52,683 nt of DNA, taken from the IMG/VR virus record IMGVR_UViG_3300033153_001326, positions 1-52,683 of that record; one strand, written 5' to 3'. This stretch comes from a virus (lineage: Duplodnaviria; Caudoviricetes). The notes below the pieces were generated by a model, which worked only from the letters and a program-made list of their open reading frames with translations, made no database searches and was not told where the DNA came from. Position 1 is the stretch's first letter; every line of letters starts with the position of its first letter. The position numbers and the translations under genes were made by a program. This document shows positions 1 to 35,433 of the stretch, in pieces.

Positions 1-243
1 GGTTATCCTTACTTTATCAGTTCCAATCCATTTATGTGATACAGACTGTGGTTCTTCACGAAACATTGGTGTTCTGTAGTCTTCCATTGTTCTGATAAGA
101 ACTTGTCGTGCTTCATCGTATGGGAGAGCCTTTGCTTCTTTATGGCTTCCTCTCTTTGGATTAGCAACGATAACATCATACACAGATCCTTTCAGATTGC
201 GTACAAATGTATCTTTCACTTTTCTTATCTCAGCTAGTTTCAT
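1..243 (-). CDS. Hypothetical protein, 3'-truncated by the window edge (MKLAEIRKVKDTFVRNLKG...)
   Basis: Manual translation: ATG at 243 overlaps the stop of the upstream gene and the frame is open to position 1. Not in the ORF track. Confidence 0.75.
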   Translation of the reverse strand, partial: MKLAEIRKVKDTFVRNLKGSVYDVIVANPKRGSHKEAKALPYDEARQVLIRTMEDYRTPMFREEPQSVSHKWIGTDKVRIT

Positions 244-596
244 TATCTACCTTGTTTCGATAGTTGAGCCACGTTATCACTCATAGGATAGTCATCGTCA
301 TCGTTATTGTGCTTTGCTACTTCTGCTGATATATCAATCCCACCCTCAACTCTTGCTACTTCTTTGAAGCCTTTGACACCATCAACGAATACTAACACAA
401 CTACAGCAATATCATCAGAGTTATCTGCTGCAAGCTCAGTTGCTTGCTGCTTTGCATAGTTTATATCTGATGTAGCTACCCATCGTTCAATTGGATGCAT
501 GCCTTCATACGCTTCATCGTTTAAGCCAATGTATACTTTGCCGCCAGCTCCTGGTGCTTCGTCTACATACTGTTCTGTTATCTGTTCAATCTTCAT
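243..596 (-). CDS. Acidic hypothetical protein, possible internal head protein
   Basis: 117-aa ORF coupled to its neighbours; N-terminus MKIEQITE. Confidence 0.7.
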   Translation of the reverse strand: MKIEQITEQYVDEAPGAGGKVYIGLNDEAYEGMHPIERWVATSDINYAKQQATELAADNSDDIAVVVLVFVDGVKGFKEVARVEGGIDISAEVAKHNNDDDDYPMSDNVAQLSKQGR

Positions 597-839: not shown

Positions 840-1091
840 TTATGGGCCTTCTGCGTACACTGTCTGTTGGTCAGCATCCATCACTCGCCAGAACTTAACT
901 GCTGTCCAGCGCATGAACAAATCTTTTGCTGCTGCTTCTGCCTCTTCAACTGTGTCATACTTTATTGCGTTGGATGCCCAGCTATCTTCTGGATCGCCGT
1001 GGGTATTAACGAATACTTTGTATATTCCTTTCTGATCTCGTACGCCTGTGGCATTACCTCTGCGCGCTTCTTCTATTTCTTTTAGCTTCAT
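840..1091 (-). CDS. Hypothetical protein, possible internal head protein
   Basis: ATGA overlap with the gp6 stop; N-terminus MKLKEIEE. Confidence 0.75.
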   Translation of the reverse strand: MKLKEIEEARRGNATGVRDQKGIYKVFVNTHGDPEDSWASNAIKYDTVEEAEAAAKDLFMRWTAVKFWRVMDADQQTVYAEGP

Positions 1092-4000
1092 GTTGATGCT
1101 CCAACTCTTAGGTTAGTATCTGTTAGATTACGTACAATCTCTACGTCTGCTACTGTGGCTGTACTGAGGAATAACTCATCAGTTTCACCCTTTACTTGGA
1201 ACAGATTACCAAATACTGAGTCATCTTTCTGTGGTACTATGACTACAGATGCTACGATCTTAGCCAATTTCTGGTGAATGTATGCAGATAGTTCAGTGTA
1301 AAAGAAACTCTCTCCGAAATCCCAGTTAGAAATGTCGAAGTACTCATCAATAGCTGTGATAATTTCAGATTTCACTTCGTTGTCTGTCTCTGTAGCTCCA
1401 TCAACTTTGACTACTTTGAACTTAGCTTGCAATTCATCTTCTGCGCCAGTACCAAACAATAGCTTGAACTGTCCAGGTTGGTAGATGATCTGGTCAGAGA
1501 GCATCTTGAAGTCGTTGAGTTCAGCGAACTGTACACGTAAATCTTCTGTTGTTGGTGCGTCAGGGAATGGTGCAGTTATATCGTTGCTACCCTTCCATGT
1601 TGTTACTTCGCCATAATAGCTATTTGTTAGTAGAACAGTATCAATGATGTTAGAGATACTTGGATCAATACGATTGCTACGTGGTGCAAAGTGCTTCCAC
1701 TTGAAGTACAATGGATTCTCTTGCGTTGCGTCTGTAATCGTGTCTAGCTCAAAGCTTCTGCCTACTCTAGCTTGGTGGTTCGTTGTCTGTACTATCTGTC
1801 CAGCAGTTGTTGTCAACTGTTCAAAAACATAGAAGTGTTCTACTGATGTATTCTCATCATAGAATACCATGCCTTCGAATGCCACGATTGAGTCTTCTGT
1901 TGTTCCTGTCACTGGATTCAAGATAGCATCAATGATTGTGTTCGCGCCAGTTGCAGATGGATCGTTTATCGTAACAACCAAGTCTACTAATGTAGTAGAC
2001 AATGACGTAGCTGATACATCTGCGGGGTCTGTTGCATGATCTGAGATAACGTAATCAGAACCAACTAGGTGTACATACATTTGGCTTGCGCCTATATCAT
2101 ACTCACCATGTTTCCATAGTCTGAAATACTCGTAGTTGTCGAAGTCAGTGAATCGTTCGAAATATACTGTATCTGGCAACCCACCATTATCAAGAAACTC
2201 CTCGATCTCTAGTGGTTCGTCTGGAATACCATCAGCGTTTGCATCTGGTGCAATGACTTCTATTTTACGTGGGTCTTTGTAACCATCTTCATACAGAACT
2301 AATGCGTTCAACTGTAGATTGACTGGATCAGCTAGTGCTGCGCCAGCCCCAATTGAAGCTGGGTTCGTAAGTGTATTGGTTCTTAGAATCTCAACTGTAT
2401 CTGTTAGTGGCAGACCAGTAGAAACATCAATAGTATTTCGTGTTGGGTCTTGGAAGAAACGTACATCTTCTAATGATTCAAAGATATAACGCTTGCCTCG
2501 TGTCCTGAATGTCCATAGATCATCAACAGCATCGTAAGTACAGAATACTAGCCAGCTTTCTGGTGTCAATGCAGTCATAGGGCCAGCAAAGTCTTCACTA
2601 CCAGTCGGTGCGGGAGCATCAATCACATACCATGCACCAGCCTTGAAGTTTGCGTCTACATCATAGCCTATACCAAAATCTGCTTGGTTAGTAATTGCTA
2701 GTTGAATAGCATTTGACTCTGCTGTGTCAAATGCTGTGCGGAACGTTGGGATCAAGTCAATCGCCCATCGGTTATCGTCTACTAGATCAGATAGCTCTAC
2801 AGGCCCAGTGTTTGTAAGGCTTTCTTCATCTGTTGCTATACCATTGTTAATGACTGAGTTAACTACTCTCCAATCAACCTTCGTTGCCGTTGCTAATACA
2901 GAATCATCGGCAAAGCGTACTGCTGCGCCAGTTGACATGAATGTACCAGCGCCGCCATTAGAAAGATCAATAGACGATCCTGCGCCGCCAGCATCAGTAT
3001 TTGTATAGAAACCAGTATCGTTTGTTGTGTTACGTGGCTGTGTCTGCCACTTCACTGTGCCGCCACCATAGTCTGATGCGCCATGCACATTGAAGTTGCC
3101 AGGGTTCAGTGTTAGATAGCTTGTGCGATAGTCACTGTAATAGAAGTTCTGTAGTTCTTGGTTATCAATGAATGCATCTAGATTCACGTTAACAATCGTA
3201 CCAGTACCAATGCTTGCGTCTACTGTTATACGATCAATCTCCTCATCAATATATAGTGCGCCATCATCACCAAACACTAATACATTCTGTGCAGTACCAG
3301 TTGGGTCGTTAATATCAATGTAACGAGAGTGGCCTGCGTGAGTACGATTGAGTGATTTGATTTTGGCAATCTCGTTGCCTCGTGTCAATGGGAATACATT
3401 GTAGTCCTCGCCATTAACCATTCTGTTTTGAGTATAGAATACTTGTGGTGCGCGCTCTTTAATCTGTTGGTTTGTTTCAGTTGGTGCGCCATTAGATATG
3501 GTTGAGTCCAGGCTGAATAGTAGTCGTAGATTGTACTCTAGCCCATCTGCACCAAAGTATGGAATGTTAATCTCAAAGTTCTGTACATCATCTGGGCGTA
3601 GTGTCAAATTCTTGTTAGCAGATACACGCAACCATGTACGGAAGATGCCAACTGGTGTATCACCAAAGTTACCATCAGCAAATTTCAATGTTATTTGATC
3701 GCTCAATCGTGGAATAACGTTGAAGATGTTTCGTATGTTATTATCTAGGCTGTTGAAGATAACGTTTGTACCAACAAGACTTGGAACTTTTGTCCACTGT
3801 TGTTGAACTGCGCCAGCTTCATCAATCTCTTGTACATACACATCAGTTTCGTTAACATTATTGGTATTAATATCCAAAGTCCTGTTTCTAACGGGCAATT
3901 CGAACAAAGTATCCTGTTTTTCAAGCGTTCCCTGCTTAAACATTAGGAAAAAGCCAGTGTTTTCCGACCCTAAGCCCTCTCCATCGTTGCGATAAACAAC

Positions 4001-4711
4001 ATGAAAGTTATCCGCTGGATCAGGTGATCGCTCGTAAAAGAACTCACCATCAGTGAAGTCAGGGTTAACAACATCAAAAGGTATTTGATCGCCACGTAAT
4101 GGAATACTAATGTTGTATGCTACTTCAACGTTTGGTACGTTGTTCATTCTGTATAGATCAGTTGGTATCTGTCCAATGGTTCCCGTCTTGAATGGGCGAC
4201 CAAATGGGTTATTAGAATTAAATGCTGCGTTAAGTATTGTAGTAAACTGTTCGAAACTATCTGGATTATTAACATCGTTCCAGAATACTGTTATATTATT
4301 CAAGTCACGATTCAAACTGTCTTGTACTGGTTCGTTTGTCTCTACGCCAGATAGCTTGAATAGTCCAGACAAAGCAATGTTACGACGAGGCGTGTACGAT
4401 AGCATACGTGCTAGACGAATGATAGAGTCACGACGTTCTGCTGTATCCAGGAAGTTTTCTCTTGTGTTCAAGTCTGCTCTGAAATTGAGTGATGTACCCA
4501 TGTATGCAAGCAACTCAATGGTTGCTACGAACTCACTTGATTGGATATAGTCATTAAAGTCTTCAGGATAGTGCGCTCTTACGTAGTCTATTAGTGAACT
4601 GCGGAGCGTATCGAAGTCGTAACTACGAAAATCTACATCACTGAATGATTTATAGATTGTTTGCCAATCTTCTGCCGTGAATAAGTTACTTTGTCTTACT
4701 GATTGTGACAT
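1088..4711 (-). CDS. gp6: Baseplate wedge subunit (T4 gp6-like)
   Basis: N-terminal YDFDTLRSSL...ELLAY...RENFLDTAERRDSIIRLARMLSY, plus KFADGNFG and TQNRMVNGEDY motifs typical of gp6/gpJ; adjacent to gp25. Confidence 0.92.
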   Translation of the reverse strand: MSQSVRQSNLFTAEDWQTIYKSFSDVDFRSYDFDTLRSSLIDYVRAHYPEDFNDYIQSSEFVATIELLAYMGTSLNFRADLNTRENFLDTAERRDSIIRLARMLSYTPRRNIALSGLFKLSGVETNEPVQDSLNRDLNNITVFWNDVNNPDSFEQFTTILNAAFNSNNPFGRPFKTGTIGQIPTDLYRMNNVPNVEVAYNISIPLRGDQIPFDVVNPDFTDGEFFYERSPDPADNFHVVYRNDGEGLGSENTGFFLMFKQGTLEKQDTLFELPVRNRTLDINTNNVNETDVYVQEIDEAGAVQQQWTKVPSLVGTNVIFNSLDNNIRNIFNVIPRLSDQITLKFADGNFGDTPVGIFRTWLRVSANKNLTLRPDDVQNFEINIPYFGADGLEYNLRLLFSLDSTISNGAPTETNQQIKERAPQVFYTQNRMVNGEDYNVFPLTRGNEIAKIKSLNRTHAGHSRYIDINDPTGTAQNVLVFGDDGALYIDEEIDRITVDASIGTGTIVNVNLDAFIDNQELQNFYYSDYRTSYLTLNPGNFNVHGASDYGGGTVKWQTQPRNTTNDTGFYTNTDAGGAGSSIDLSNGGAGTFMSTGAAVRFADDSVLATATKVDWRVVNSVINNGIATDEESLTNTGPVELSDLVDDNRWAIDLIPTFRTAFDTAESNAIQLAITNQADFGIGYDVDANFKAGAWYVIDAPAPTGSEDFAGPMTALTPESWLVFCTYDAVDDLWTFRTRGKRYIFESLEDVRFFQDPTRNTIDVSTGLPLTDTVEILRTNTLTNPASIGAGAALADPVNLQLNALVLYEDGYKDPRKIEVIAPDANADGIPDEPLEIEEFLDNGGLPDTVYFERFTDFDNYEYFRLWKHGEYDIGASQMYVHLVGSDYVISDHATDPADVSATSLSTTLVDLVVTINDPSATGANTIIDAILNPVTGTTEDSIVAFEGMVFYDENTSVEHFYVFEQLTTTAGQIVQTTNHQARVGRSFELDTITDATQENPLYFKWKHFAPRSNRIDPSISNIIDTVLLTNSYYGEVTTWKGSNDITAPFPDAPTTEDLRVQFAELNDFKMLSDQIIYQPGQFKLLFGTGAEDELQAKFKVVKVDGATETDNEVKSEIITAIDEYFDISNWDFGESFFYTELSAYIHQKLAKIVASVVIVPQKDDSVFGNLFQVKGETDELFLSTATVADVEIVRNLTDTNLRVGAST

Positions 4712-5094
4712 TATTGAGCCTCTGTATTTTGACGATCATATTCTACTGCTAAGGAATCGACAACATCTAGTGGTATGTAGCGTAGAGTTATGTCTAGTCG
4801 AACTGTCTGCTCTAGCTCACGCGCTTGAATATCAATTACATCGAAGCGTGGGTCTTGAGTAATGATACGTGCTGCATCTTCATAGATTGCTTCTATAGTG
4901 TTGTTATCAAATGGCTCAAACAACAGATCGAAGATAATTGAACCAAAGTTTGGGTGCATCACTCGCTCGCCGCGACGAGTGAGGAATGCAAACAATAGGT
5001 CTTGTTTAGCCAATTCGATACCCTCTTCTGTATATGGCGGAGTTCTCTTTCCATATGTGGAGAAACCAATGTTTGTACCGCGTAATGCCATCAA
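4711..5094 (-). CDS. gp25: Baseplate wedge subunit (gp25/gpW family)
   Basis: TRRGERVMHPNFGSII.DLLFEP...DPR signature. Confidence 0.92.
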   Translation of the reverse strand: MMALRGTNIGFSTYGKRTPPYTEEGIELAKQDLLFAFLTRRGERVMHPNFGSIIFDLLFEPFDNNTIEAIYEDAARIITQDPRFDVIDIQARELEQTVRLDITLRYIPLDVVDSLAVEYDRQNTEAQ

Positions 5095-5153: not shown

Positions 5154-5213
5154 TAAGCCACTGATAGTAAAGGACATTTAGGACTTGACATTTCCCTCAT
5201 TTTGCTCTATAAT
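5154..5213 (+). promoter_or_regulatory. Consensus sigma70 early promoter with an upstream IHF-like site
   Basis: TTGACA (5185-5190), 17 nt, TATAAT (5208-5213); WATCARNNNNTTR match on the minus strand at 5154-5166. Confidence 0.85.
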
Positions 5214-5865: not shown

Positions 5866-6077
5866 TGAGTAAAGAATATTCAACAGATGAAGTATTAACC
5901 ATGTTGCGTCAAACTGATGCAGGTCGCGGCCTTGCTCGTCTTGCAATCAAAGAGATTGAACGATTGGTTGAGCGAACAACAGAATTAGAAGGCGAGTTAG
6001 CAGAAGCAAACAGTGCTGCTGACTTCTATCAAAATGAAGCTGACCACTACTACGGGGTAAGTGAAGCTAATGAATGA
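5865..6077 (+). CDS. Hypothetical coiled-coil protein
   Basis: TAATG coupling at 5865 (MSKEYST...). Confidence 0.7.
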   Translation: MSKEYSTDEVLTMLRQTDAGRGLARLAIKEIERLVERTTELEGELAEANSAADFYQNEADHYYGVSEANE

Positions 6078-6546
6078 GCATAGAAATACACTAGCAGAAG
6101 ACTTCCAAGAAATGGGAGTATGGTTCACTGAATCATTCACTTGGTCGCCAGGTGGCGTGTTAATTCCATTGATTGGTTTGTCTTTGGGGTTGTGTTGGGG
6201 TTTGTATCGTTATGGACGATCCCTCAAGTATCTCTACTTCTATTACATCGAACATGGTGACGTTGTTTGGTCAATGGAGAGCAGATCATACAGAGAAAAC
6301 ATGATAGAGATTGTCAAGAAATATAAACTCTCTGAATTCTTTAAGCCACATGGTTATGTATCAGGATTAGGCATCATTCTTGCTTGTACTACTCTTGGGG
6401 CAATCGCTGGATCATTATGGCCGCTTACACTCGCCATTGGAGTACTAACTATTCCCAATATTGTACTACGTTTCATTGCTAGAGAGAAACGTGCGAAGGC
6501 TGTCTTTCAACAGAACTTGCAAGGTAACGCAGATGGCAACGCTTGA
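6061..6546 (+). CDS. Hypothetical membrane protein
   Basis: Three hydrophobic segments; overlaps neighbours within the operon. Confidence 0.75.
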   Translation: MKLMNEHRNTLAEDFQEMGVWFTESFTWSPGGVLIPLIGLSLGLCWGLYRYGRSLKYLYFYYIEHGDVVWSMESRSYRENMIEIVKKYKLSEFFKPHGYVSGLGIILACTTLGAIAGSLWPLTLAIGVLTIPNIVLRFIAREKRAKAVFQQNLQGNADGNA

Positions 6547-6820
6547 GAAACTAGACAACCTTGGTTATGTCGTTAAGATTAAAGGACGTAACCAATACGT
6601 AGTTAACGATTGCTTAGGACTTCATAGGTCAGAGATATGGGGCAACGATCTGGCTAAAATTATCGTGTACAAAACGATTCAAGAGGCCCAAGCTATCAAA
6701 AGAAGTTTCGATAATAGTAAGAAAGACTATTTTGAGGTACGAGACATAGAACTTGAAGTTCAACCAATGCACAAGAAAGCGATTATGGTCGCAAAGCTAA
6801 AAGGATCGAACGATGAGTAA
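6533..6820 (+). CDS. Small protein, paralog family A
   Basis: Start re-called to ATG 6533 (AAGGT RBS); YVV...YKTIQEA...KKAIMVAKLKG. Confidence 0.75.
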   Translation: MATLEKLDNLGYVVKIKGRNQYVVNDCLGLHRSEIWGNDLAKIIVYKTIQEAQAIKRSFDNSKKDYFEVRDIELEVQPMHKKAIMVAKLKGSNDE

Positions 6821-7142
6821 ATTAATGACAGTCCATGAAAGCGAATGGGACAAGTTAGAAGATGAAATCAAACGACTCAATAAACTTGTCGATGATATTT
6901 CGTATACTGCGAAGAATCGCAAAAAGAAAATGCATCTGTATCGTGACGCACTCATTGAGATTGGTCACTGGACACCAGAAACACAAGAAAGTGCAAGAGA
7001 ATTGGATTCAGAGGGTGCGATGTGGCGCGGGTGTGTAGCACAAGCGAACATGGCATTAGAAGAGGGTGATGATGCTGTCGAAGGGCGAGTCAGGGTATAT
7101 CCAGAAGGATATCTTGAAAGGAAAGGAGAGAATAATGAGTAA
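6813..7142 (+). CDS. Hypothetical protein
   Basis: AAGGA RBS; coupled ORF with N-terminal coiled coil. Confidence 0.75.
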   Translation: MSKLMTVHESEWDKLEDEIKRLNKLVDDISYTAKNRKKKMHLYRDALIEIGHWTPETQESARELDSEGAMWRGCVAQANMALEEGDDAVEGRVRVYPEGYLERKGENNE

Positions 7143-7434
7143 TTCACGAAACGTATATGTTTTAACAGCAACGCCAGCCCGTGGTGGAAGCAATGCTGAA
7201 GAAATGAAATTGTATTGGAATTCTGATGGTTATGCAGTCCAGCGTAGCGCATGGACTCCCAAACTTAGTGACTGTCTGACATTCGCTAAGGAAGCAGAAG
7301 CAATCGAACTAAAAGAAAAACTACAAAAGATGATTGATGATACTGAGGACGAGAAGCGTTTGATCGTGAAAGACGTAATAGTTGAAGTCCTTGATCGCAA
7401 GCAGTTGATGATCGCAAAGATGAAGGGACTATAA
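7135..7434 (+). CDS. Small protein, paralog family A
   Basis: AAGGAG RBS before ATG 7135; YVL...LSDCLTFAKEAEA...RKQLMIAKMKG. Confidence 0.78.
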   Translation: MSNSRNVYVLTATPARGGSNAEEMKLYWNSDGYAVQRSAWTPKLSDCLTFAKEAEAIELKEKLQKMIDDTEDEKRLIVKDVIVEVLDRKQLMIAKMKGL

Positions 7435-7580
7435 TGTATAAGGATAAATGGTTTTCAATATTCATGTGTGTGGTGGCATTGACGATTGGTTCATGCACAG
7501 CATTTGATAATTACAACGGCACACAGTATAGGCTCGCACAACTTGAGTGCCAACGGGTGACAAATGAATCCAATGACTAA
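7434..7580 (+). CDS. Small putative lipoprotein (48 aa)
   Basis: Manual translation MYKDKWFSIFMCVVALTIGSC...; TAATG-coupled and fills the gap between genes. Confidence 0.6.
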   Translation: MYKDKWFSIFMCVVALTIGSCTAFDNYNGTQYRLAQLECQRVTNESND

Positions 7581-8106
7581 GTTCAGGCCAGGCCACAGCA
7601 TTGCAAGAGCAATCATATTTGTTGTATGCCTTGCTGCGTTCTTGAGTCTGTTTGGGTGTTCATCTGGTGGTGAGTACGGTTCTGCTCATTCTTATTTGCA
7701 CGACCAGTATGACCCTGCAACAGGCGTGACACTGAAAGCGAACACAGGAGATAACTATTCGTTTCTCACATTTGAACAGATGGTGGCTGAGTATGTAGAC
7801 TTGGAGCGATGTATGGCTGACAATGCTACGCCTGGCCCTACTATAATTTTTGAGAGCTTCAATCACATTGGTATAGGCGGGTTGGCATTCTATGTGTATG
7901 TGTCGCAGACAGCATACATTAATACAGATCAAGATGAATACTCGCCGCAGCGAAATCATATCTCAGATAGAGAATTTCTGCGACACGAATACGGACATCA
8001 TGTGCTATACTTGAATGGGTTAGATGAAACACACAACAACCCACTCTTTGTACAATGTTCAGCACTTGGCCCTAAGTCCTGTAATGGAGAATACTGTGAG
8101 AAATAG
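7564..8106 (+). CDS. Lipoprotein with zincin-like HExxH motif
   Basis: Signal peptide ending SLFGC; FLRHEYGHHVL...H motif. Confidence 0.7.
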   Translation: MNPMTKFRPGHSIARAIIFVVCLAAFLSLFGCSSGGEYGSAHSYLHDQYDPATGVTLKANTGDNYSFLTFEQMVAEYVDLERCMADNATPGPTIIFESFNHIGIGGLAFYVYVSQTAYINTDQDEYSPQRNHISDREFLRHEYGHHVLYLNGLDETHNNPLFVQCSALGPKSCNGEYCEK

Positions 8107-8374
8107 TTTAATTGTTGTGGGCTTGTTGCTCACTGGTTGTACTAACAATGCAATGCGAACACCAGAACCAATGATCGACTACGATCAAATAGCGAGTGAG
8201 ATTACTGTCACGCATCGTGAGTTTATCACGTTACGTACTGGTCAGATATGTGAGGTCAAAGGTACAAAAATTGTTGCTTGCGAACGAAACACGTTCCGTT
8301 ATGCTGAGAACAAAGCAGACCTTCGACAGATGGACGCACTCGCAGAATCAGAGGAAAACAAGAATGAAAATTAA
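8096..8374 (+). CDS. Putative lipoprotein
   Basis: GGAG RBS before GTG 8096 (alternative ATG 8084); MRNSLIVVGLLLTGC lipobox. Confidence 0.7.
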   Translation: MRNSLIVVGLLLTGCTNNAMRTPEPMIDYDQIASEITVTHREFITLRTGQICEVKGTKIVACERNTFRYAENKADLRQMDALAESEENKNEN

Positions 8375-8732
8375 ACGCAGATGGAAAGTAATGGCAGTAT
8401 TACCGATGGTTTGGTGCATAGTTGGATTAGCAATTAGCATCCCACTATATGAATATGGTTACGAAGCATGGATAGAAGCGTATGGTAGCGCATTGCTCTT
8501 GTTCGGTGGCTGGTTTCTCGGCACAATAACAGGCGTTATTATGTTTGTGGGTGCTATCGACGCTGAGGAGCGCGAGAATGCAGACTGGAAATTCCAAGAC
8601 GATGTTTTTACGATGTACGAAGATTGTCGAGTGCATAAAATATCTAAGGAAGATAGCATCAATAAAACAGCTATCTATTACGATTCATCGCCGTCAAGAA
8701 TACGAAACATTATAAAGGTTTATCAAACATGA
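8364..8732 (+). CDS. Two-TM membrane protein
   Basis: GAGG RBS before ATG 8364; two hydrophobic helices. Confidence 0.72.
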   Translation: MKIKRRWKVMAVLPMVWCIVGLAISIPLYEYGYEAWIEAYGSALLLFGGWFLGTITGVIMFVGAIDAEERENADWKFQDDVFTMYEDCRVHKISKEDSINKTAIYYDSSPSRIRNIIKVYQT

Positions 8733-8977
8733 GTGATAACATATATGTTTTATCTGCATCTTACAACAGCGGAGATGGTGGTGGATCAATGTATCTTGGA
8801 GAATCATACATAACAGCGGCTGGTGATATAGCAGATACAATCGCAGACTTGTCAGATTGCTTGGTGTTTGATACTGAGAGCGATGCATGGGAATACAGAG
8901 AAACACGACCAAGTACGGGCTGGCAGATAACGCCACTACCAAGAAAACGAATATTTAAGCATAGGTTGAAAGGATAA
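8729..8977 (+). CDS. Small protein, paralog family A
   Basis: YVL...LSDCLVFDTESDA...RKRIFKHRLKG. Confidence 0.78.
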   Translation: MSDNIYVLSASYNSGDGGGSMYLGESYITAAGDIADTIADLSDCLVFDTESDAWEYRETRPSTGWQITPLPRKRIFKHRLKG

Positions 8978-9120
8978 TGGAAGTACTCACTAAAGACGAA
9001 ATCATTAAGGATCTTCGCGCAAGGATTGTTGACTTGGAGTTGAGGAACTATTGGAAAGAATGGCGTGAAGACATAACTCCTGAAGTATTTAAACATTATG
9101 GCTGGAGGGATTTTCGATGA
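8977..9120 (+). CDS. Small hypothetical protein (47 aa)
   Basis: Manual translation MEVLTKDEIIKDLRARIVDLELRNYW...; coupled at both ends. Confidence 0.65.
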   Translation: MEVLTKDEIIKDLRARIVDLELRNYWKEWREDITPEVFKHYGWRDFR

Positions 9121-9548
9121 AGGTAGGATTTGACATACATGGTGTAATTGACACGTTTCCAGCGTTCAGGATGATGATCGAAAAGTACATTGACGATCCC
9201 GAAGTGGAAGTTCATGTGATTACTGGCCTATCCCAAGAGTCGGCCGCAAAAGAGATAGGCCACTTGGTTGACTTAGATCGCATCGACGGTTACTTTTCAA
9301 TTGCAGATTACTTAGTACAACGGCCAGACGTTAACGTTAGCTGGATAGATGGTCTTCCGTGGTCTGGTGAGATTGCATGGAACGAGGCTAAAGCAACATA
9401 CTGTTACGAAAACCAAATTGATATACTCTTTGATGATAGTCCTATCTACTCAGACTCATTCAAAGACATTGACACGATTTATGTACAGATTCATAATGCA
9501 GATAGGAAGTCATACAAGACTCGACCAAACACAGGGTACACAAAATGA
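9117..9548 (+). CDS. HAD-superfamily hydrolase (5'-nucleotidase-like)
   Basis: Motif I-like FDIHGVID, motif II VIT, conserved K, motif IV ILFDD. Confidence 0.7.
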   Translation: MKVGFDIHGVIDTFPAFRMMIEKYIDDPEVEVHVITGLSQESAAKEIGHLVDLDRIDGYFSIADYLVQRPDVNVSWIDGLPWSGEIAWNEAKATYCYENQIDILFDDSPIYSDSFKDIDTIYVQIHNADRKSYKTRPNTGYTK

Positions 9549-9796
9549 TTACGAAAAAAGAACTGAAAACAAGATTGTTTCACATGGTAAGCATCTTTCT
9601 TATTAGCGGGTTGATTACAATGTGTGGATTCATTATTATACCAGAGTTAACTATTGCAGAAATAGATCAAAACACGCTGACAGTGTTTAAGTTTCTGATT
9701 ATCTCAGCGTTCGTTGTGCATATCATGGGCATGGTGTCAATGTGTGTCTTGCTAGTTGGCGACACAATGGAACGCATACAGAATATTGGTGAGTAA
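9545..9796 (+). CDS. Two-TM membrane protein
   Basis: Two hydrophobic helices; ATGA overlap. Confidence 0.72.
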   Translation: MITKKELKTRLFHMVSIFLISGLITMCGFIIIPELTIAEIDQNTLTVFKFLIISAFVVHIMGMVSMCVLLVGDTMERIQNIGE

Positions 9797-10044
9797 TGGC
9801 TACAACAAGAGAATTGGTTGAGGATGGTAAAATCTATGTGCTGCGTGAAAATCCACAACACGCTGGGTGTCACAGAGGACGGTACTACACTGGCAAGAAT
9901 CCTGCATCAAGCATCAAAGATGCAAAACTGTTTAAATTACAGAATGCAAAGAATGTGAGGAAGTTTGCACACACTGGCTGGTGTTATGATGTTGTAAGAG
10001 TGACAAACAAGCAGATGTTCGTAATGTTACTGAGTGGCGAATGA
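9796..10044 (+). CDS. Small protein, paralog family A (divergent)
   Basis: YVL...IKDAKLF...NKQMFVMLLSG. Confidence 0.72.
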   Translation: MATTRELVEDGKIYVLRENPQHAGCHRGRYYTGKNPASSIKDAKLFKLQNAKNVRKFAHTGWCYDVVRVTNKQMFVMLLSGE

Positions 10045-10256
10045 AATACGTAATAGAAAGAACTGATGGTTTCTGGAATAATGCTTATGTAAGTGAACCA
10101 ATGTGTGTACATGAATGTATAAGCAAAGCCATAGCATTTGATACGTTTGATGAAGCAGACGCATACTTCGAACGTCCATCCATGTCTACTTATAAGTATC
10201 GTATAGTAAACATAGATGATAAAGAGTTATTCGAAGCGAGATTGAAAGGTGAGTGA
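10041..10256 (+). CDS. Small protein, paralog family A
   Basis: YVI...ISKAIAFDTFDEA...DKELFEARLKG. Confidence 0.78.
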   Translation: MKYVIERTDGFWNNAYVSEPMCVHECISKAIAFDTFDEADAYFERPSMSTYKYRIVNIDDKELFEARLKGE

Positions 10257-10551
10257 CAAATACGTAATTGCTTGGGGTGCATCACCAATGGAACAACCAT
10301 TGACGATAATCTATTTTAGAGAACTGTGGTTCAAAGGCCATGACTATGATACATATGGATCAAGCCCTGAGCCTACAGTGGTGAGAACTGGATTACTGAA
10401 CCAAGCAAGACTATTTGATACGATTGAAGAAGCTGATGCGTTTTTCCACAAAGTAAATGAACACGTTAAAGTTGAATCACCAGATGATATATCATTCGTG
10501 CTGCCAGTGTCAGAGAAAGACATATTCAGTGCGAAGTTAAAGGATGAGTAA
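10249..10551 (+). CDS. Small protein, paralog family A
   Basis: YVI...LNQARLFDTIEEA...EKDIFSAKLKD. Confidence 0.78.
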   Translation: MSDKYVIAWGASPMEQPLTIIYFRELWFKGHDYDTYGSSPEPTVVRTGLLNQARLFDTIEEADAFFHKVNEHVKVESPDDISFVLPVSEKDIFSAKLKDE

Positions 10552-11342: not shown

Positions 11343-11572
11343 TGAAAAGACTTGACGTAGGTAAAGCATCGTTTCGTAAGCGTAGAGGCAAATGGGTAGA
11401 AGTGCCAGAAGAATGGGTTGGCGTGTGTGCTAGTCCACAGACAATACGTAAGCGTCAAAGCAAAACGACACGTAAGAATAAGAACGATGATATTAAGAAC
11501 AATCGTCGTGATTTTGGTAATGGTACGTACTTAAAGTACAAGAGGGGCGCGGATGTCTTCGGAGAAACGTAA
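11342..11572 (+). CDS. Small basic protein
   Basis: TGATG coupling at 11342; K/R-rich. Confidence 0.65.
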   Translation: MKRLDVGKASFRKRRGKWVEVPEEWVGVCASPQTIRKRQSKTTRKNKNDDIKNNRRDFGNGTYLKYKRGADVFGET

Positions 11573-11822
11573 ATTTAAATACAAGCTATCTGGTTTCGAA
11601 CAGATGTGGACTGAGATTGAGCGTCTTGAGGAGCGAGAAGAATTACTTATTCGCACACTACAAACATTGGCGCAAGATGATTTACCTCTGCCTCGCTCAG
11701 AATACATACAAGCTGCACTGACTAACTTGCAGAAGATTCCAGGCAAGTCGGCTGGATACAAAATGATCGAGAACATGGGAATAGATTTTTACGAGAAGGC
11801 AAAGTGCCAGTTTAGCGATTGA
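11553..11822 (+). CDS. Hypothetical protein
   Basis: GAGG RBS; 89-aa ORF. Confidence 0.7.
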   Translation: MSSEKRKFKYKLSGFEQMWTEIERLEEREELLIRTLQTLAQDDLPLPRSEYIQAALTNLQKIPGKSAGYKMIENMGIDFYEKAKCQFSD

Positions 11823-12152: not shown

Positions 12153-12419
12153 ATGTCTGACGAGACTGAAAAAGACCCGAATGATCCAGTAAGAATTTCT
12201 ATATTCGTCAAAGACGGCGATGATAATGAAGATTGGGTGTACGACAAATTACGTACACTCGATGATTATGACCCTGGGTTCTACTATCGTGAAATGCCTA
12301 CTAGAACTGGCACAATATTCATAATTGATACTAAGGCCAGAAACATGGAACACCAAGACTTCAAGAAGTTTTTGTTCCAAGCACGTATCAAGTTTGCTGA
12401 GAATGTTAAGATAAGATGA
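12153..12419 (+). CDS. Small protein, paralog family B
   Basis: AAGGTG RBS; ends FKKFLFQARIKF. Confidence 0.75.
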   Translation: MSDETEKDPNDPVRISIFVKDGDDNEDWVYDKLRTLDDYDPGFYYREMPTRTGTIFIIDTKARNMEHQDFKKFLFQARIKFAENVKIR

Positions 12420-12748
12420 GTAGAATAATAGCACAGAAAAAGTATTACAAGCTTGCATTCTCTGTTGATATAGAGACAGCAGAAGATGTAACTTGGATCA
12501 GGGAGCAAATGGAAAAGTTAGAAGCTGAACCACTCATCATGCGATGCTTCCAGAATGTTCGTGTCTATGATGCGTTCAGTAACAATCCAAAAATTAGTCA
12601 AACTGATTGGACAAGCGACGTTAATGCGTTTGCAATATATTATCGTGAAGAACATAACATCACCATAGAAAAATTCTTATTCAAAGTGAAACTAAAGTTT
12701 CCAAACTTCAAACACGAATTCACACAGACAGTCAAAGAGTACAACTAA
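12416..12748 (+). CDS. Small protein, paralog family B
   Basis: Contains IEKFLFKVKLKFP near the C-terminus. Confidence 0.75.
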   Translation: MSRIIAQKKYYKLAFSVDIETAEDVTWIREQMEKLEAEPLIMRCFQNVRVYDAFSNNPKISQTDWTSDVNAFAIYYREEHNITIEKFLFKVKLKFPNFKHEFTQTVKEYN

Positions 12749-13038
12749 TGAGTTGGTCATGTGATACCACAACGAATTCTAGTGCTACTACGTTTATGAG
12801 CATAAAAACAACCTCCATAACTATTGCAGAGATTGATGCAGCAGATGAAAAATTCATATGGAATGCATTTGATGCTGCTGACTTGAAAGCAACAATGATT
12901 CTTAAACAGAATTGGGGTAAAGTCTTGCCAGATGCAATATTCACATTCACTTACGTTTATGAACAGCAATTGAAAGACCTCAAGAAAGTTTTCTTCAAGC
13001 TACTGTTAAAGTATCCTGATATGAAATATTCGTATTAG
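12748..13038 (+). CDS. Small protein, paralog family B
   Basis: Ends LKKVFFKLLLKYP; exact start uncertain. Confidence 0.7.
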   Translation: MSWSCDTTTNSSATTFMSIKTTSITIAEIDAADEKFIWNAFDAADLKATMILKQNWGKVLPDAIFTFTYVYEQQLKDLKKVFFKLLLKYPDMKYSY

Positions 13039-14723
13039 ATTCCTGGTATACTTCCGCCAATACTACCAATAGTAGCTGGACTGCCGACTGCGTGTTCAGG
13101 ACACGGCTCAAACGTTAAGAATCTTCCAACCATTGTTAATACTGGCTGTTGAATGCGATCAGTGTTGAGCGGTGGAACAAACAATGCCAAGTTGTTTATT
13201 TTTGGTAATGGCACAGTAGGTATTCCAGGTATTGCTGGTGTAGCAACGGCTGCTATCGGCCCACACACAGGGCCAGTAGTACCGCCTGCGCCTACGAATG
13301 GTAGTGTGCTGCCTGCTGATGATCCTGATGCAATCTTATGTGTGTGCGCTTGCAATCCTTCTAACGACATTGTTGTTGATTTTACATCGGCCCCGAACAC
13401 AATACCCGCTGCCTTGATATTGCCCAGCGTTCCGATGCCTGCAGATGCAATACCTATATTAGTGGCACATACTCCGAATTCAGCGGGGGTTGACATTGTA
13501 ATACCAGCAGCAGCACCCAATTCAAGTGAGCCTGTTGTTGTCATTGTCTGCCCACCACCAATGAGTAAGCTATCGTCGCCCACAATATTTGTGTTACGAT
13601 TGCCCGTGACTGTAGTTTCCATATCACCGATTAATACAGTAGTTGTTATGCTGCCTTGCATAGAGGTTAGTGTCATGTTATTTGCTGCTTCAATAATTAC
13701 TGCGCCACCATCACCCACCAATGGAGGACCAACTTGTCCACCAGCAATTGGTGCTGCGCCTTCTGCAGGAATTGGAATCTTATCTGCTGCTGCTTTAATT
13801 GTTATGTTATGTCCAGCTTCCATTACAATGTCATTGTCTGCACGTAAGTTAATATCTTCTTGTGAACGAACACTCACGCTCTTAGCACCAAAGATGTCGA
13901 AGTTGCCTTCTGCATCCATTTGCATCCAGCTTGTTCCTGCTGCGTTGATTGCATAGACAAGTCCATTCGTTTCATCAATGAGCATCTGTGCTCCGCTTCT
14001 GGTGCGTAAACGTATGTGTTCACTGCCGCGAGCATCATCCATGTAGAATTGTGAGCCGCCAAGTCGCTTGCCTGGAACATCTGAATTCTCAGGGCCAGGA
14101 GTTAACATACCATATACTTGAGATGGTGCTTCGCGTCTTGCTCCACTCCTAGATGGGCCGCGCACTGTGTCTTTGATTAAGCCTTGTGCATTGATTCCTT
14201 CTGCCGCTTCTACTAATGCAGGTCGAGTAATATCTTCTGTTACTGTTTGCTTGGTACGTTTGTTATACTCAGCAACAGGTACATCCACTGTAGGAAACTG
14301 AATGCTCTTATCTGATGGCATTCCAGGAACCATTTTGTTCATAAATTGTTGGAACAGACAACCCATCATCACGCCGCGCGATGGATCACCACTCGCAAAC
14401 ATAATTATAACTTGATTATCTAGATCAGGTGGCACAGCCCAAAAACCATAACTGGTTTGTGTTGCTTCTGCTGTTTGGTCATTGTTACCCACAAGCTTTG
14501 GACTTGTTGCACCAGCAAATGGTGACGCATACGATACATTGAACCATGACTTCTCATCACTCTCTAATGATCCGAAGTCTGGAATCCAAACCTTTAGTCT
14601 TCCCATGCGTTGTACATCTCTGTTGTCTTTTACAAACCCAACGTACATTCCCTCGTATTTAACTGTGCGGCCACTCGGGGTATAATTTTTATCTGGGCCT
14701 ATTGTGCGTGTAACTTTAGCCAT
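13035..14723 (-). CDS. gp5: Baseplate central spike/hub (gp5/gpV-like, no lysozyme domain)
   Basis: OB-fold YVGFVKDNRD...GRLKVWIP, SYGFWAVPPD, beta-helix repeats, HTH metal-binding motif near the C-terminus. Confidence 0.85.
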   Translation of the reverse strand: MAKVTRTIGPDKNYTPSGRTVKYEGMYVGFVKDNRDVQRMGRLKVWIPDFGSLESDEKSWFNVSYASPFAGATSPKLVGNNDQTAEATQTSYGFWAVPPDLDNQVIIMFASGDPSRGVMMGCLFQQFMNKMVPGMPSDKSIQFPTVDVPVAEYNKRTKQTVTEDITRPALVEAAEGINAQGLIKDTVRGPSRSGARREAPSQVYGMLTPGPENSDVPGKRLGGSQFYMDDARGSEHIRLRTRSGAQMLIDETNGLVYAINAAGTSWMQMDAEGNFDIFGAKSVSVRSQEDINLRADNDIVMEAGHNITIKAAADKIPIPAEGAAPIAGGQVGPPLVGDGGAVIIEAANNMTLTSMQGSITTTVLIGDMETTVTGNRNTNIVGDDSLLIGGGQTMTTTGSLELGAAAGITMSTPAEFGVCATNIGIASAGIGTLGNIKAAGIVFGADVKSTTMSLEGLQAHTHKIASGSSAGSTLPFVGAGGTTGPVCGPIAAVATPAIPGIPTVPLPKINNLALFVPPLNTDRIQQPVLTMVGRFLTFEPCPEHAVGSPATIGSIGGSIPGI

Positions 14724-18536: not shown

Positions 18537-18565
18537 TTGACAAAGCAAGCAATACTTGTTATAAT
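18537..18565 (+). promoter_or_regulatory. Consensus sigma70 promoter for the gp55-gp47-gp46 operon
   Basis: TTGACA, 17 nt, TATAAT with a TG extension. Confidence 0.85.
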
Positions 18566-18620: not shown

Positions 18621-19553
18621 ATGGCAGCCCGTAACAAATATCTAAACAACAAAGAGTTGTTGAAAGAAATTCATAACAGTAAAATATCATACAGCGAGTT
18701 TGACAAGCCTGGATATGATAAGTTTGATGCTATCGTAGAAAGCTTTGACGACCTATTCAATGAAATTGAGGAAGTCGAAGACATCATTGATGAAAAAACT
18801 GGTGAAATCGTTGATACCAAAGGGACTGGTGTTATGTACTGCTTTGCATTACGTAGCGCACAGGAAGCCAAAGCAAAGCGTATAGGCCAATCAAACTACG
18901 AACAGGCTCGTGACTCATACGAGGGGCCTGTTTCTGGCAAGCCTCGTCAAATTGATTACAAGATTGATCCCCAATCGCTCGTTGAAAACGAGCTAATATT
19001 CAGATGTATGACGTATGAGCATATCCCACTTGAGCCTGGTCGTAAGAAGAATCCGCGCAAAGAAGCGGAATATTACGTCAAGCTTAACTTTATTCCGTTC
19101 AAGCACTACATTGTTGAAGATCGTGCTACAAAAAAGGTAAAAGAGATTGGCCGCAGTCACAGCAAGGACGGAGAGTTTTGCCAAACACACGGCGCAATGA
19201 CTGATAAGCTTGCAACTATGTTTATGTTGCTCGTAGAACGATATAGTCAACGTGCTAACTGGCGTGGCTATACATACATTGATGAAATGCGCGGCCAGAG
19301 TTTGTTACAGCTATCGTCAATGGGCCTGCAATTCAACGAAGCAAAGAGCAACAACCCGTTCGCATACTACACACAAGCGTTGACGCACAGTTTCACTCGC
19401 GTACTTAACTTGGAAAAGAAACACCAGGATGTTAAGGATAAGATTCTTGTCGAAAAAGGATTGACTCCAAGCTGGAAGAAACAGATCGAACACGAAGACA
19501 AGTTACGTAAGATTCGCGAGGAAGCTAAAGCAGCCGATAACGAGTCACAGTAA
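18621..19553 (+). CDS. gp55: Late-transcription sigma factor (gp55-like, with large insertion)
   Basis: YLNNKELL...RANWRGYTYIDEM...KSNNPFAYYTQ signature. Confidence 0.9.
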   Translation: MAARNKYLNNKELLKEIHNSKISYSEFDKPGYDKFDAIVESFDDLFNEIEEVEDIIDEKTGEIVDTKGTGVMYCFALRSAQEAKAKRIGQSNYEQARDSYEGPVSGKPRQIDYKIDPQSLVENELIFRCMTYEHIPLEPGRKKNPRKEAEYYVKLNFIPFKHYIVEDRATKKVKEIGRSHSKDGEFCQTHGAMTDKLATMFMLLVERYSQRANWRGYTYIDEMRGQSLLQLSSMGLQFNEAKSNNPFAYYTQALTHSFTRVLNLEKKHQDVKDKILVEKGLTPSWKKQIEHEDKLRKIREEAKAADNESQ

Positions 19554-19804
19554 TGGTCGAAACTAAAAAGGAAAAGTTCACAAGAGTATTGTCTGGTGAG
19601 CCCGTAAGTTGGAAAGAATATGCGTTGCAACAAATACACGTATTGGTACTGGCAGAAGTGCGGGATAAAGAAACAAACAAAGACAGTACTTACTTCATGG
19701 ATTTAGAGCAAAAGATACATGAAGATATGGAATTAACAGGAGATCAAATCGACGCTATAGGACAACTGTACGTCGAATGGGCAAAGACTAAAGGCCACGT
19801 ATGA
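19553..19804 (+). CDS. Hypothetical protein
   Basis: Coupled ORF within the operon. Confidence 0.72.
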   Translation: MVETKKEKFTRVLSGEPVSWKEYALQQIHVLVLAEVRDKETNKDSTYFMDLEQKIHEDMELTGDQIDAIGQLYVEWAKTKGHV

Positions 19805-20064
19805 CAAATGATCCCAAGAAAGATTTTGTAAAGAACTTGAAGGGGACACATCTATCAGAATCAGATCACGATGAGATTGTGTTAGAAATAACTAGTACAA
19901 TCAGAATAATTTCTGGTATCTGCTACATGGATTTGCCTGATGATGAAAAAGTCAAGCGAATACTAGAAATGATAGACTATGCGAACGGCATATTAAAAGA
20001 TGCATCGTATGCTGAACGATATGCTCGCGCATTAGAAAACTATGAAAAGGCAAATAATGACTGA
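19801..20064 (+). CDS. Hypothetical protein
   Basis: Coupled ORF within the operon. Confidence 0.72.
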   Translation: MTNDPKKDFVKNLKGTHLSESDHDEIVLEITSTIRIISGICYMDLPDDEKVKRILEMIDYANGILKDASYAERYARALENYEKANND

Positions 20065-27321: not shown

Positions 27322-27620
27322 TCTTTTCGTTTAGCTTTCAAGGCTAACATTCCTTGTTCAATCAATTCTTTATTATCTTCTATATACTCTACCCACTGAG
27401 CCATCTTCTCTCCATCTATCATCAGTCCTGATCCATTACATGAAGGACAGGGATAAACTCCAATCGGTTTCAGCATCATAGGCATATCTTCCATACCCAT
27501 ATCTCTAGCAGCAGATGCGTACCCGCCGCCGTTGCAGCGTGTGCATACTACATCGTCAGGATGATTCTTAGTTGCCATTATCCATTGCCTCGTATACTTG
27601 AGCCATTTCATCATTAGCAC
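27318..27620 (-). CDS. Small protein with DnaJ-type CxxCxGxG zinc finger
   Basis: CTRCNGGG and CPSCNGSG; exact start uncertain. Confidence 0.72.
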   Translation of the reverse strand: MLMMKWLKYTRQWIMATKNHPDDVVCTRCNGGGYASAARDMGMEDMPMMLKPIGVYPCPSCNGSGLMIDGEKMAQWVEYIEDNKELIEQGMLALKAKRKD

Positions 27621-27897
27621 CTTTGAGTTTTAATACGAATTTTTCTTTCCCTTCTATCAAACGACATTCGCTTTCTAATGCAGTATGGGTTGACCCATCT
27701 AAGAATTCGATTCTGTACCATGTATCAGATCGTGTTAGGCCATGAAATCCAGAACTCTTTGTACCAGCTAATGTTTGTTTATGCCATCTTCCTCGTTGAG
27801 CGTGTAACGTACCCATGTACTGATCTTCTGTGACAATTTGTCCTCTCGCCACTAAGCCCATTCCAATGTCTACTTCAACGTAGTCGCCTATCTTCAT
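27568..27897 (-). CDS. SH3/KOW-like hypothetical protein with FVLKLKG motif
   Basis: MKIGDYVEV...GQIV...YRIEFLDG pattern; TAATG-coupled. Confidence 0.65.
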   Translation of the reverse strand: MKIGDYVEVDIGMGLVARGQIVTEDQYMGTLHAQRGRWHKQTLAGTKSSGFHGLTRSDTWYRIEFLDGSTHTALESECRLIEGKEKFVLKLKGANDEMAQVYEAMDNGN

Positions 27898-28214: not shown

Positions 28215-28805
28215 TTACTTTCCCCAAGGTCTGCGGTTATAGATGCGAAGTACTCTCTTGAGCCAGTCCTCTTCGTACTGGTCTACTATGTCAGCAGTCA
28301 TGCATAGACGTACACCAACGATAGCGTTACCAATAGTATCTACTGAGATAACACCAGCAAATTTGCGGAAGTGCATCGTAGCTAGTGCTGAGATACGTAG
28401 CTCAATGTCACCACGTAGCTCGTCTAGTACTACCTTCTCACCATCAACTACGTTGTGGTGCTTTGCCCATTTGATTGAGCCTTTCATAATAGCTATGTCA
28501 GTAGTCAGTACATCACCAGCGGGTTCTTTAATATAGATACTACCTGCTTCGTGACCATATTTGTTTAGTGGTTGATTTCCTGTTGCCACGCCACTGAATG
28601 GAAACTCTCGTAGTCGATAAGTCAAATCTCCCATTTCGAACGGTGCCCATTCGATATTCTGGAAATCGAGTAGACGAGAGGTAGAGTACACCCAATTGTA
28701 CTTAGGGTATAGCTTGTATGCTACTTCGTCGTTTAAAGGTATGTCGATGTTTGTCTCGACGTCCTCGAATATTGTGTCTTTTGTGTCTATGCCTAAAAAT
28801 GTCAT
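28215..28805 (-). CDS. Hypothetical protein, degenerate ATP-grasp-like
   Basis: N-terminal D..AY...P...WVY and C-terminal G..IV.V.L resemble 46783..47475. Confidence 0.6.
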   Translation of the reverse strand: MTFLGIDTKDTIFEDVETNIDIPLNDEVAYKLYPKYNWVYSTSRLLDFQNIEWAPFEMGDLTYRLREFPFSGVATGNQPLNKYGHEAGSIYIKEPAGDVLTTDIAIMKGSIKWAKHHNVVDGEKVVLDELRGDIELRISALATMHFRKFAGVISVDTIGNAIVGVRLCMTADIVDQYEEDWLKRVLRIYNRRPWGK

Positions 28806-28820
28806 TATGTTTTACCTTGG

Positions 28821-35374: not shown

Positions 35375-35433
35375 ATTATACGCACCTTTTCCTCTTTTGT
35401 CAAATCTATATTCCTTTGCAAATCAATGACTTA
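35375..35433 (-). promoter_or_regulatory. Consensus sigma70 early promoter with an upstream IHF-like site
   Basis: TTGACA (35403-35398), 17 nt, TATAAT (35380-35375); AATCAATGACTTA at 35421-35433. Confidence 0.85.

Follow-up and report, generated by a model that had tools for sequence, protein, structure and literature searches.

A terminal decapeptide of a six-member small-protein family recurs on apparently unrelated soluble and membrane proteins in an uncultured clade of T4-like jumbo phages

We analysed a window of 52,683 bases, the entire IMG/VR virus record IMGVR_UViG_3300033153_001326, which is a genome fragment from an uncultured T4-like jumbo phage and encodes, between positions 6533 and 10551, six small open reading frames (ORFs) ending in a common decapeptide. 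These six ORFs are ancient paralogs of an unnamed alpha/beta protein family of 70-104 residues. A first-pass annotation had treated the decapeptide as a property of this family; what is new here is that the motif occurs genome-wide in the phage clade and is not a family trait. As judged from sequence comparison, the tail is not a hallmark of the family and is instead a portable terminal motif of the clade, carried by unrelated soluble and membrane proteins. We favour, with a probability of roughly 55%, the reading that the tail is a common handle by which many small proteins of the phage would be brought to a single partner or location.

Among the 522 ORFs of the window, a simple tail pattern matches 8 times, and seven of these matches lie within 6 residues of the C-terminus. 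Six of the seven are the family members, all of which (6/6) have the motif 0-4 residues from the C-terminus, and the seventh is a membrane protein of a separate family with two transmembrane helices, encoded at 6061..6546 (+) just upstream of the first member (member a), which carries KAVFQQNLQG right after its last transmembrane helix, as a cytoplasmic C-terminal tail. Across the 19 sequences of this two-transmembrane family, the stretch A-R-E-K-R-x-K-A-V-F-x-Q-x-L-K-G that follows the last transmembrane helix is the best conserved, with R141, K143, F146 and L150 invariant in the 19 homologs, and divergent paralogs (E about 1e-10) in the related contigs G002 and G009 end in ...KIEFTQKLKG followed by eight residues and in ...KQVFVDKIKD followed by seven, respectively.

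For a genome-wide count we built a 10-column log-odds matrix from the family tails only and applied it, with a cut-off score of >=12, to all six-frame ORFs of at least 40 residues in six contigs, with family ORFs excluded and 20 within-ORF shuffles as control. Non-family matches, compared with the shuffle mean, numbered 6 against 0.3 in the window, 30 against 1.2 in G002, 22 against 1.5 in G009, 18 against 1.1 in G008, 0 against 0.4 in G001 and 25 against 3.0 in G003, which amounts to 101 matches against about 7.5 in the shuffles. Permuting the columns in sixty matrices yielded 10.6 matches on average (standard deviation 3.5, maximum 21) and the reversed matrix gave 9, results by which we rejected an artefact of local composition. 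The same matrix found no excess over shuffles in two cultured relatives, the Pseudomonas jumbo phage PA5oct (2 against 3.0) and the Pectobacterium phage CBB (7 against 4.6). The matches prefer protein ends, since 31 of the 101 fall within 5 residues of the C-terminus and 62 within 20 residues, where uniform placement would give 5.8 and 20.3; 16 fall within 25 residues of the ORF start. Nearly all lie on the main coding strand of their contig (28/30 in G002, 22/22 in G009, 18/18 in G008 and 23/25 in G003).

When the motif was masked, the 85 carriers scoring >=14 fell into 52 BLAST clusters at E <1e-3, comprising the alpha/beta family (19), a second soluble family (6) whose members end in ...Y-A-x-x-K-E-h-F-x-x-K-L-x-G, small groups that include two membrane families, and 43 singletons, and a family profile stripped of the tail gave no carrier more than 3.5 bits. 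An ordered decapeptide found on many unrelated proteins, mostly at their ends, behaves like a portable interaction or address motif. The first-pass annotation had proposed that the terminal helix may dock onto one shared partner, an idea made more plausible by the over-representation of the decapeptide on many clade proteins that BLAST does not relate, although no partner was identified. Phyletic profiling for such a partner, among G003 genes present in motif-rich contigs and absent from PA5oct and CBB, produced 10 candidates, among them RtcB, RadC-JAB, PTH2 and HNH, none of them convincing with contigs this incomplete. Three of these genes of G003, encoding an RtcB RNA ligase (28415-29704), a RadC-like JAB protein (93989-94468) and a PTH2 peptidyl-tRNA hydrolase (224058-224516; loci L053, L056 and L063), are each common to G003 and one other contig of the clade, and tblastn finds none of them in PA5oct or CBB. 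No protease is linked to the motif, which counts against the idea that the motif is a processing or turnover signal, either a site of cleavage after the glycine or a degron, that times the life of early proteins. The residues after the glycine are indeed very variable (none, one to five, or long acidic stretches) and N-terminal carriers have the motif ~5-15 residues from their start, in the manner of a leader, but there is no cleavage evidence and the motif is a folded helix in the family, hence a poor protease substrate; we hold such a signal to be very unlikely.

The other carriers in the window are ORFs unrelated to the family. The highest-scoring is a 109-residue ORF at 27568..27897 (-), with KEKFVLKLKG 16 residues from its C-terminus (score 18.8), and a weaker motif, KFLFKVKLKF, stands 15 residues from the C-terminus of the ORF at 12416..12748 (+; score 12.2), at the same distance as KLLFKLKLKY in the G002 ORF G002_115946_116296. 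Near the N-terminus the motif occurs in two small ORFs, at 11553..11822 (+; MSSEKRKFKYKLSG..., score 14.0) and 19801..20064 (+; MTNDPKKDFVKNLKG..., score 14.7), and in an ORF cut by the window edge at 1..243 (-; MKLAEIRKVKDTFVRNLKG..., score 14.5). The ORF preceding 19801..20064, at 19553-19804(+), begins MVETKKEKFTRVLSG, a motif seen by eye and not scored; these two consecutive genes, which both begin with the motif, lie between the sigma-factor and SbcD-like genes.

Membrane carriers are not confined to the window. In G003, which lacks the alpha/beta family, four tandem ORFs at 226656-228258 (L063; 133-149 residues from stop to stop, two of them scored with three transmembrane helices each) end, after a basic cluster, in K/R-x-L-F-x-[ED]-[KS]-L-x-G, the same arrangement as in the window's two-transmembrane protein. 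The tail could be thought of as a membrane-targeting or surface helix that keeps small soluble proteins on the inner membrane, close to the membrane proteins encoded with them, as its terminal position, its basic and hydrophobic residues, its place immediately behind the final transmembrane helix and a basic cluster in at least two families (the two-transmembrane A8 family and the G003 ORFs at 226656-228258) and the one third of membrane proteins among the ORFs around the family would allow. Like the terminal amphipathic membrane-targeting helices of MinD and FtsA, it is a short terminal helix with Lys/Arg and Leu/Phe and a final Gly, also found near membranes; unlike them, it has a low hydrophobic moment (0.12-0.50 on the Eisenberg scale for the seven window tails) and packs against the domain in the model, one residue beyond strand 4. 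Many carriers, moreover, are encoded away from membrane-protein genes, and we consider a membrane-targeting role quite unlikely.

The first-pass annotation had cautioned that the K-G codons also form the ribosome-binding site (RBS) of the next gene, a caveat that is right but narrow, since it covers at most the last two tail residues. In 23 of the 24 members for which DNA was available, the next start lies between -2 and +8 nucleotides after the codons at the K-G position (5-8 nucleotides in 8 members, <=3 nucleotides in 15), the usual Shine-Dalgarno spacing being 5-9 nucleotides. K-G itself is found in 12 of the 24, and where it is replaced by K-D the bases remain AAGGA. From these codons, the last two residues appear partly to double as a Shine-Dalgarno element. 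RBS-driven codon bias does not account for the remainder of the motif: the codons at the upstream positions vary synonymously and K-L-K-G is kept without a nearby start, both in one member that has no downstream start and in a membrane paralog where it stands 23 nucleotides upstream of the next start. A DNA-level element was rejected, given that the third codon positions of the motif vary freely and its flanks carry little information. Leucine of the motif is encoded by TTA (20), TTG (20), CTA (12), CTC (11), CTT (11) and CTG (6), glycine by GGA (24), GGC (19), GGT (15) and GGG (5), and the phenylalanine and lysine codons also vary freely. On this codon evidence, the tail is selected at the protein level.

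Profile comparison resolves the family itself into five solid members and one divergent member, d, attached through a bridging homolog. All six ORFs are present on the + strand where the first-pass annotation had placed them, and their tails read exactly as it had given them: member a (6533-6820, 95 residues) ends in KAIMVAKLKG followed by SNDE, member b (7135-7434, 99 residues) in KQLMIAKMKG followed by L, member c (8729-8977, 82 residues) in KRIFKHRLKG, member d (9796-10044, 82 residues) in KQMFVMLLSG followed by E, member e (10041-10256, 71 residues), the one modelled below, in KELFEARLKG followed by E, and member f (10249-10551, 100 residues), which starts with GTG, in KDIFSAKLKD followed by E. 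Homology tests were run against all 522 six-frame ORFs of the window. Pairwise phmmer links are weak (e-f 8e-5, b-c 1e-3, c-e 0.01, a-b 0.03), and leave-one-out profiles, each made from the other five members, recovered five of the six as the top non-training match at E 3e-4 to 1e-6. We then excluded the tested member's own subfamily, dropping from alignment A2, in which the six are joined by their database matches, every sequence >=35% identical to it; members a, b, c, e and f were found at E 8.7e-9, 2.2e-9, 4.1e-8, 7.9e-13 and 6.1e-10 (thus from 8e-13 to 4e-8), and the best non-family ORF had E >=0.12. Direct support for d is weak (leave-one-out E 0.33, subfamily-excluded E 0.029, hhalign P 2.6e-4 with a probability of 42%). 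It is 42% identical (blastp 8e-14) to L003:14483-14746(-), an ORF which carries the canonical tail, ending in KMLFKAALKGK, and matches, at 2e-5, a profile lacking d and its ortholog, and d, its ortholog P0018 and this ORF form one group with support of 99/99; d is weak alone but bridged in this way, and we therefore count it as a divergent member. The shared family proposed earlier is thus borne out by significant alignment in both kinds of profile, for d by way of the bridge.

The three conserved blocks reported earlier are real and are found in all six members, in degenerate form in d. They follow one another in colinear order as an N-terminal Y-V-(L/I) strand, A-x-x-F-x-T-x-x-E-A and the terminal K-x-h-F-x-A-(K/R)-L-K-G. 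In 32 sequences the anchor residues Y, Y, A and K are present at 94%, 97%, 91% and 97%, the 8-residue spacing of the A-x-x-F-x-T-x-x-E-A block is invariant, and the linkers between fixed anchors range over 9-30, 11-30 and 19-35 residues. The start codons assumed at first pass are borne out by the homologs P0006, P0002, P0018 and P0004, whose beginnings resemble those of a, b, d and f respectively, with GTG as the start of f, and the isoelectric points of the members run from 4.7 to 9.7. A candidate seventh member in the window, ORF 840-1091(-), was rejected, having only the central half-motif. This ORF and another small one, 243-596(-), both downstream of a wedge gene, contain the half-motif Y-x-V..., Y-D-T-V-E-E-A-E-A and lack the tail; with profile E values of 0.005 to 0.76, their kinship to the family is unproven.

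The number of copies elsewhere was checked by running the six-member profile against 1,835,955,588 representatives, among which 27 proteins matched at E <=1e-3, all of them full-length and of 71-104 residues, one being the window's own member e. The nearest relatives are P0006 for a (52% identity), P0002 for b (78%), P0010 for c (51%), P0018 for d (63%), P0022 for e (38%) and P0004 for f (58%), and identity between members within the window is <=35%, over partial length. Because every window paralog is closest to a sequence in another contig or metagenome, the duplications predate the divergence of these phages. The sequence between the motifs had been called hypervariable, which holds for the divergence between paralogs and for the variable linkers but not as fast turnover, each paralog having a relative with 38-78% identity elsewhere; judged by these identities, the paralogs are long-standing and each is conserved in its own right, unlike a library with rapid turnover.

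Related contigs hold 4 copies (G001), 6-7 copies (G002) and 3-4 copies (G009), with gene order and copy number varying between contigs, and the clusters in G001 and G002 adjoin the same hub gene as that of the window. G008 (L029 948-2187) has one clear member followed by four tandem mini-members of 52-82 residues; the five ORFs, of 52-83 residues, all end in K-[EDA]-[YL]-F-x-x-[KR]-L-K-G, and only the first is clearly of the family. At this locus four ORFs abut or overlap, a gap of ~170 bases precedes the fourth, and larger ORFs with the motif near their N-terminus follow. The family profile found nothing in PA5oct, CBB, Cronobacter phage GAP32, G003 (347 kb), G004, G005, G006 or G007, and tblastn against cultured phages gave no match for b and only E >=0.6 for f. 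Within the reach of these searches, the family is restricted to one uncultured clade of T4-like jumbo phages. Annotation resources added no name: none of the six window members matches Pfam or PHROG (0/6), with scattered sub-threshold single matches among the 32 members; the best E of the family profile against PDB sequences was 0.5; the 27 matched proteins go unnamed in every source and carry no recorded Pfam domain; an ESM Atlas search returned only viral clusters without names, every score being <0.9; and no fused or longer forms of the family were found, which is weak evidence.

Member e, modelled with AlphaFold2 from the 32-sequence alignment, reached a mean predicted local distance difference test score (pLDDT) of 91.1 and a predicted template modelling score of 0.76, with strands at 2-7, 15-19, 22-24 and 53-58 and helices at 36-43 and 60-69. 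The motif (K61-G70) corresponds to the last helix and the glycine at its end (mean pLDDT of residues 61-70, 95), and glycine caps helices. For member d, modelled from just 3 sequences, the elements come in the same order, at low confidence (pLDDT 59.7). The common scaffold suggested earlier is supported by the profile statistics and the confident model of e, and a same fold across members is supported by the alignment, not independently proven. Foldseek found no PDB chain at E <=1e-3 for the model of e, and VIA-align over 48,161 chains gave as best matches 8xqw_Q (Z 5.4, root-mean-square deviation 2.1 over 60 residues) and Tic22, 4e6z_A (Z 5.3), both below the tool's background Z of 7-8; on the Foldseek-listed chains Z was at most 3.9. 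The top structural alignments cover residues 1-71, so that in the model the compact domain includes the last helix. In BFVD the matches are many small phage proteins, nearly all uncharacterised (E 8e-3 to 0.2, TM-score 0.5-0.66). Those of phiM9, phiM12 and P-TIM68, ICP1 ORF150 and others resemble the family in size and alpha/beta arrangement (TM-score 0.52-0.66, Foldseek probability up to 1.0) and differ from it in having no sequence similarity and a best E of 8.4e-3; none of the BFVD matches listed has a described function, one bearing a domain-of-unknown-function name and one a helix-turn-helix label. A ubiquitin-like reading of the terminal glycine was dropped, as the modelled elements do not follow beta-grasp order and the fold searches turned up no structure of that kind.

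The confident packed helix of this model fits the chief competing explanation, by which the tail is only the last structural helix plus RBS codon bias, without a role of its own, and its look-alikes are generic amphipathic helices. A helix 60-69 with pLDDT 95 that lies inside the best structural alignments, the conservation of a small residue (Ala) and of hydrophobic ones as expected for packing on a sheet, and K-G or K-D codons that contain, by eye, AAGG, AGGA or GGAG in 17 of 24 members, with a close downstream start in 23 of 24, are all what it would predict. It leaves unaccounted for an ordered motif about ten times as frequent on non-family ORFs as its permuted versions (101 against 10.6), the lack of any excess in PA5oct and CBB, the preference for protein ends, the occurrence right after transmembrane helices and near N-termini, and the retention of K-L-K-G without a nearby start, and we judge it improbable. 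These RBS-like codons nonetheless count against the tail as a shared handle, and so do several other points. The tail helix of the family is modelled as packed in the fold at very high confidence, and a helix so packed needs no partner to be conserved within the family and would be less free to dock. The matrix scan was devised after the tail had been noticed on the neighbouring membrane protein and used six-frame ORFs, not curated genes. Motif-masked BLAST is insensitive for tiny proteins, and kinship between some of the 52 clusters may have gone unnoticed; the body scores of carriers are slightly above those of non-carriers (median -0.4 against -1.2 bits, Mann-Whitney p 2.9e-4). The contigs other than G003 (347 kb, 94% complete) are all fragments (CheckV completeness 9-44%), the promoter of the gene block around the family is a consensus match only, and no RNA run is listed among the sequencing runs that contain the stretch.

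What the proteins do as 'heads' is a separate matter, compatible with any reading of the tail. The first-pass annotation had suggested anti-defence or host takeover, that is, six inhibitors each blocking a different host protein. Small proteins without transmembrane helices, present in several copies with a wide isoelectric range in a sigma-70-headed block of ORFans, their copy number differing between relatives, would suit this role, and there are weak structural likenesses to small inhibitors of phages, with 8g9s_A (Z 4.6, 27% identity over 52 residues), AcrIC9 (Z 2.6) and T7 Gp2 (Z 2.6), as well as the RNA polymerase epsilon subunit (Z 3.6-3.8). All of these, however, and the VIA-align rows for 8hjj_A (Z 2.6) and 8f3k_A (Z 2.9), lie below the meaningful level, the typical best Z without a true match being 7-8, and the family has no sequence match to any named family and consists of old, conserved paralogs without rapid turnover. 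We regard an inhibitor role as doubtful.

The family lies in a + strand block from ~5.2 to 13.0 kb, with positive guanine-cytosine skew across it, that contains ~29 ORFs read as genes, small and tightly packed or overlapping. It is bounded on one side by the baseplate wedge genes gp6-like 1088-4711(-) and gp25-like 4711-5094(-) and on the other by the gp5-like hub gene 13035-14723(-). A perfect sigma-70 consensus promoter, TTGACA-17-TATAAT (12/12 match), heads the block at 5185..5213 (+), just 5' of the first gene, and for this reason the block is probably transcribed by the host RNA polymerase, and probably early. Perfect TTGACA-N16-18-TATAAT sites are found 4 times in the window against 0.08 expected from shuffles, the other three being 18537-18565(+), 35375-35403(-) and 44113-44140(+); one of the perfect sites adjoins the late-sigma-factor gene (18621-19553) on its upstream side. 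For the relative PA5oct, 32 promoters are reported at transcription start sites, with TTGAC and TATAATA as their boxes (PMC7318152). The T4 late-promoter word TATAAATA occurs at 3 sites in the window against 2.96 expected, with 0 inside the block, and thus without enrichment although a gp55-like late sigma factor is encoded; going by this count, the late promoters of this phage clade may differ from those of T4. Terminators number 6 in the window against 4.6 expected.

Hydrophobic segments above the Kyte-Doolittle threshold are present in 10 of the 29 block ORFs and in none of the six family members, in keeping with the interspersion of the family among membrane-protein genes described at first pass. 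The 22 non-family block ORFs scanned gave no Pfam match and one PHROG match, to a function-unknown family (phrog_13623, 2.7e-24), for the ORF at 9117-9548 (+), which begins MKVGFDIHGVID and has look-alikes in the blocks of L003 and L005. The ORF at 7564-8106(+), of 180 residues, has an N-terminal hydrophobic segment followed by a Cys, lipoprotein-like by eye, and a HEYGHH string that resembles a zinc-protease motif, with no Pfam or PHROG match.

The assignment of the window, which CheckV estimates to be 14% complete, rests on its large ORFs, which match T4-type modules: gp6-like and gp25-like baseplate wedge proteins, a gp5-like hub with lysozyme, a late sigma factor, an SbcCD-like nuclease, portal, major head protein and tail sheath. 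Identity of this major head protein is 75.3% with its PA5oct counterpart and 69.1% with those of CBB and GAP32. Megablast against 50,697 phage records found nothing close to the DNA of the region, and two sequencing runs each contain at least half of the sampled words of the stretch, a sediment metagenome and a hydrothermal-vent metagenome.

The arrangement that we favour is as follows. The six paralogs have kept one core while varying loops and surface charge, a pattern that suggests different binding surfaces on one scaffold. Lacking predicted membrane segments, the proteins are presumably cytoplasmic, and the fold as modelled runs three strands, helix, strand and helix, with the tail as the last, glycine-capped helix. 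Their genes belong to a block of tightly packed ORFans, many of which encode inner-membrane proteins, and are transcribed probably early and probably by the host polymerase. If the tail is a shared handle, its target could be a phage or host hub protein, the carriers themselves, or the inner face of the cytoplasmic membrane. A more specific version, in which the decapeptide serves as address tag in an undescribed jumbo-phage sorting or assembly system that collects dozens of small soluble and membrane-bound phage proteins by this helix, and the paralogs are interchangeable 'heads' on a common hub or membrane platform, is speculative and, to our minds, unlikely.

Blocks of small ORFan genes, the 'hyperplastic regions' between conserved modules, are familiar in T4-type phages, and the block described here agrees with them in its tiny overlapping unannotated genes between the gp25/gp6-like and gp5-like baseplate genes, its host-type promoter at the head and a gene content that differs between relatives. 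It departs from them in the six-fold expanded family and in the terminal decapeptide common to many unrelated proteins of the genome; we know of no such terminal motif in T4-type phages, and literature text searches found no description of one. In its behaviour, the tail most resembles, by analogy, short terminal motifs that bind a hub, such as the beta-clamp-binding QL[SD]LF motif and the PIP box, or the T4 capsid-targeting peptide, while showing the defining sequence features of neither. As in hub-binding motifs, some ten residues stand at the extreme C-terminus or near the N-terminus of otherwise unrelated proteins; the differences are the consensus K-[ED]-h-F-x-x-[KR]-L-K-G, the presence on membrane proteins and a modelled folded helix instead of a flexible tail. 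A beta-clamp-binding motif as such was rejected, the tails having neither the Gln nor the L-x-L-F pattern of QL[SD]LF. The T4 capsid-targeting sequence is N-terminal, ~10 residues long and removed by the prohead protease after L/I-x-E. It too is a short terminal peptide common to unrelated small phage proteins and serves as an address tag, whereas the present motif is mostly C-terminal, has no L/I-x-E site and occurs also on integral membrane proteins, themselves improbable as capsid cargo.

Most genes of jumbo phages are small ORFans that offer no handle for study, and a motif found on more than 60 of them in one clade supplies one. It predicts a shared partner, place or fate for soluble and membrane carriers alike, and the six-member family provides natural variants on one confidently modelled scaffold with which the ligands of the variable surfaces may be sought. 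Should there be a hub, much of the accessory proteome of these phages would be organised by it.

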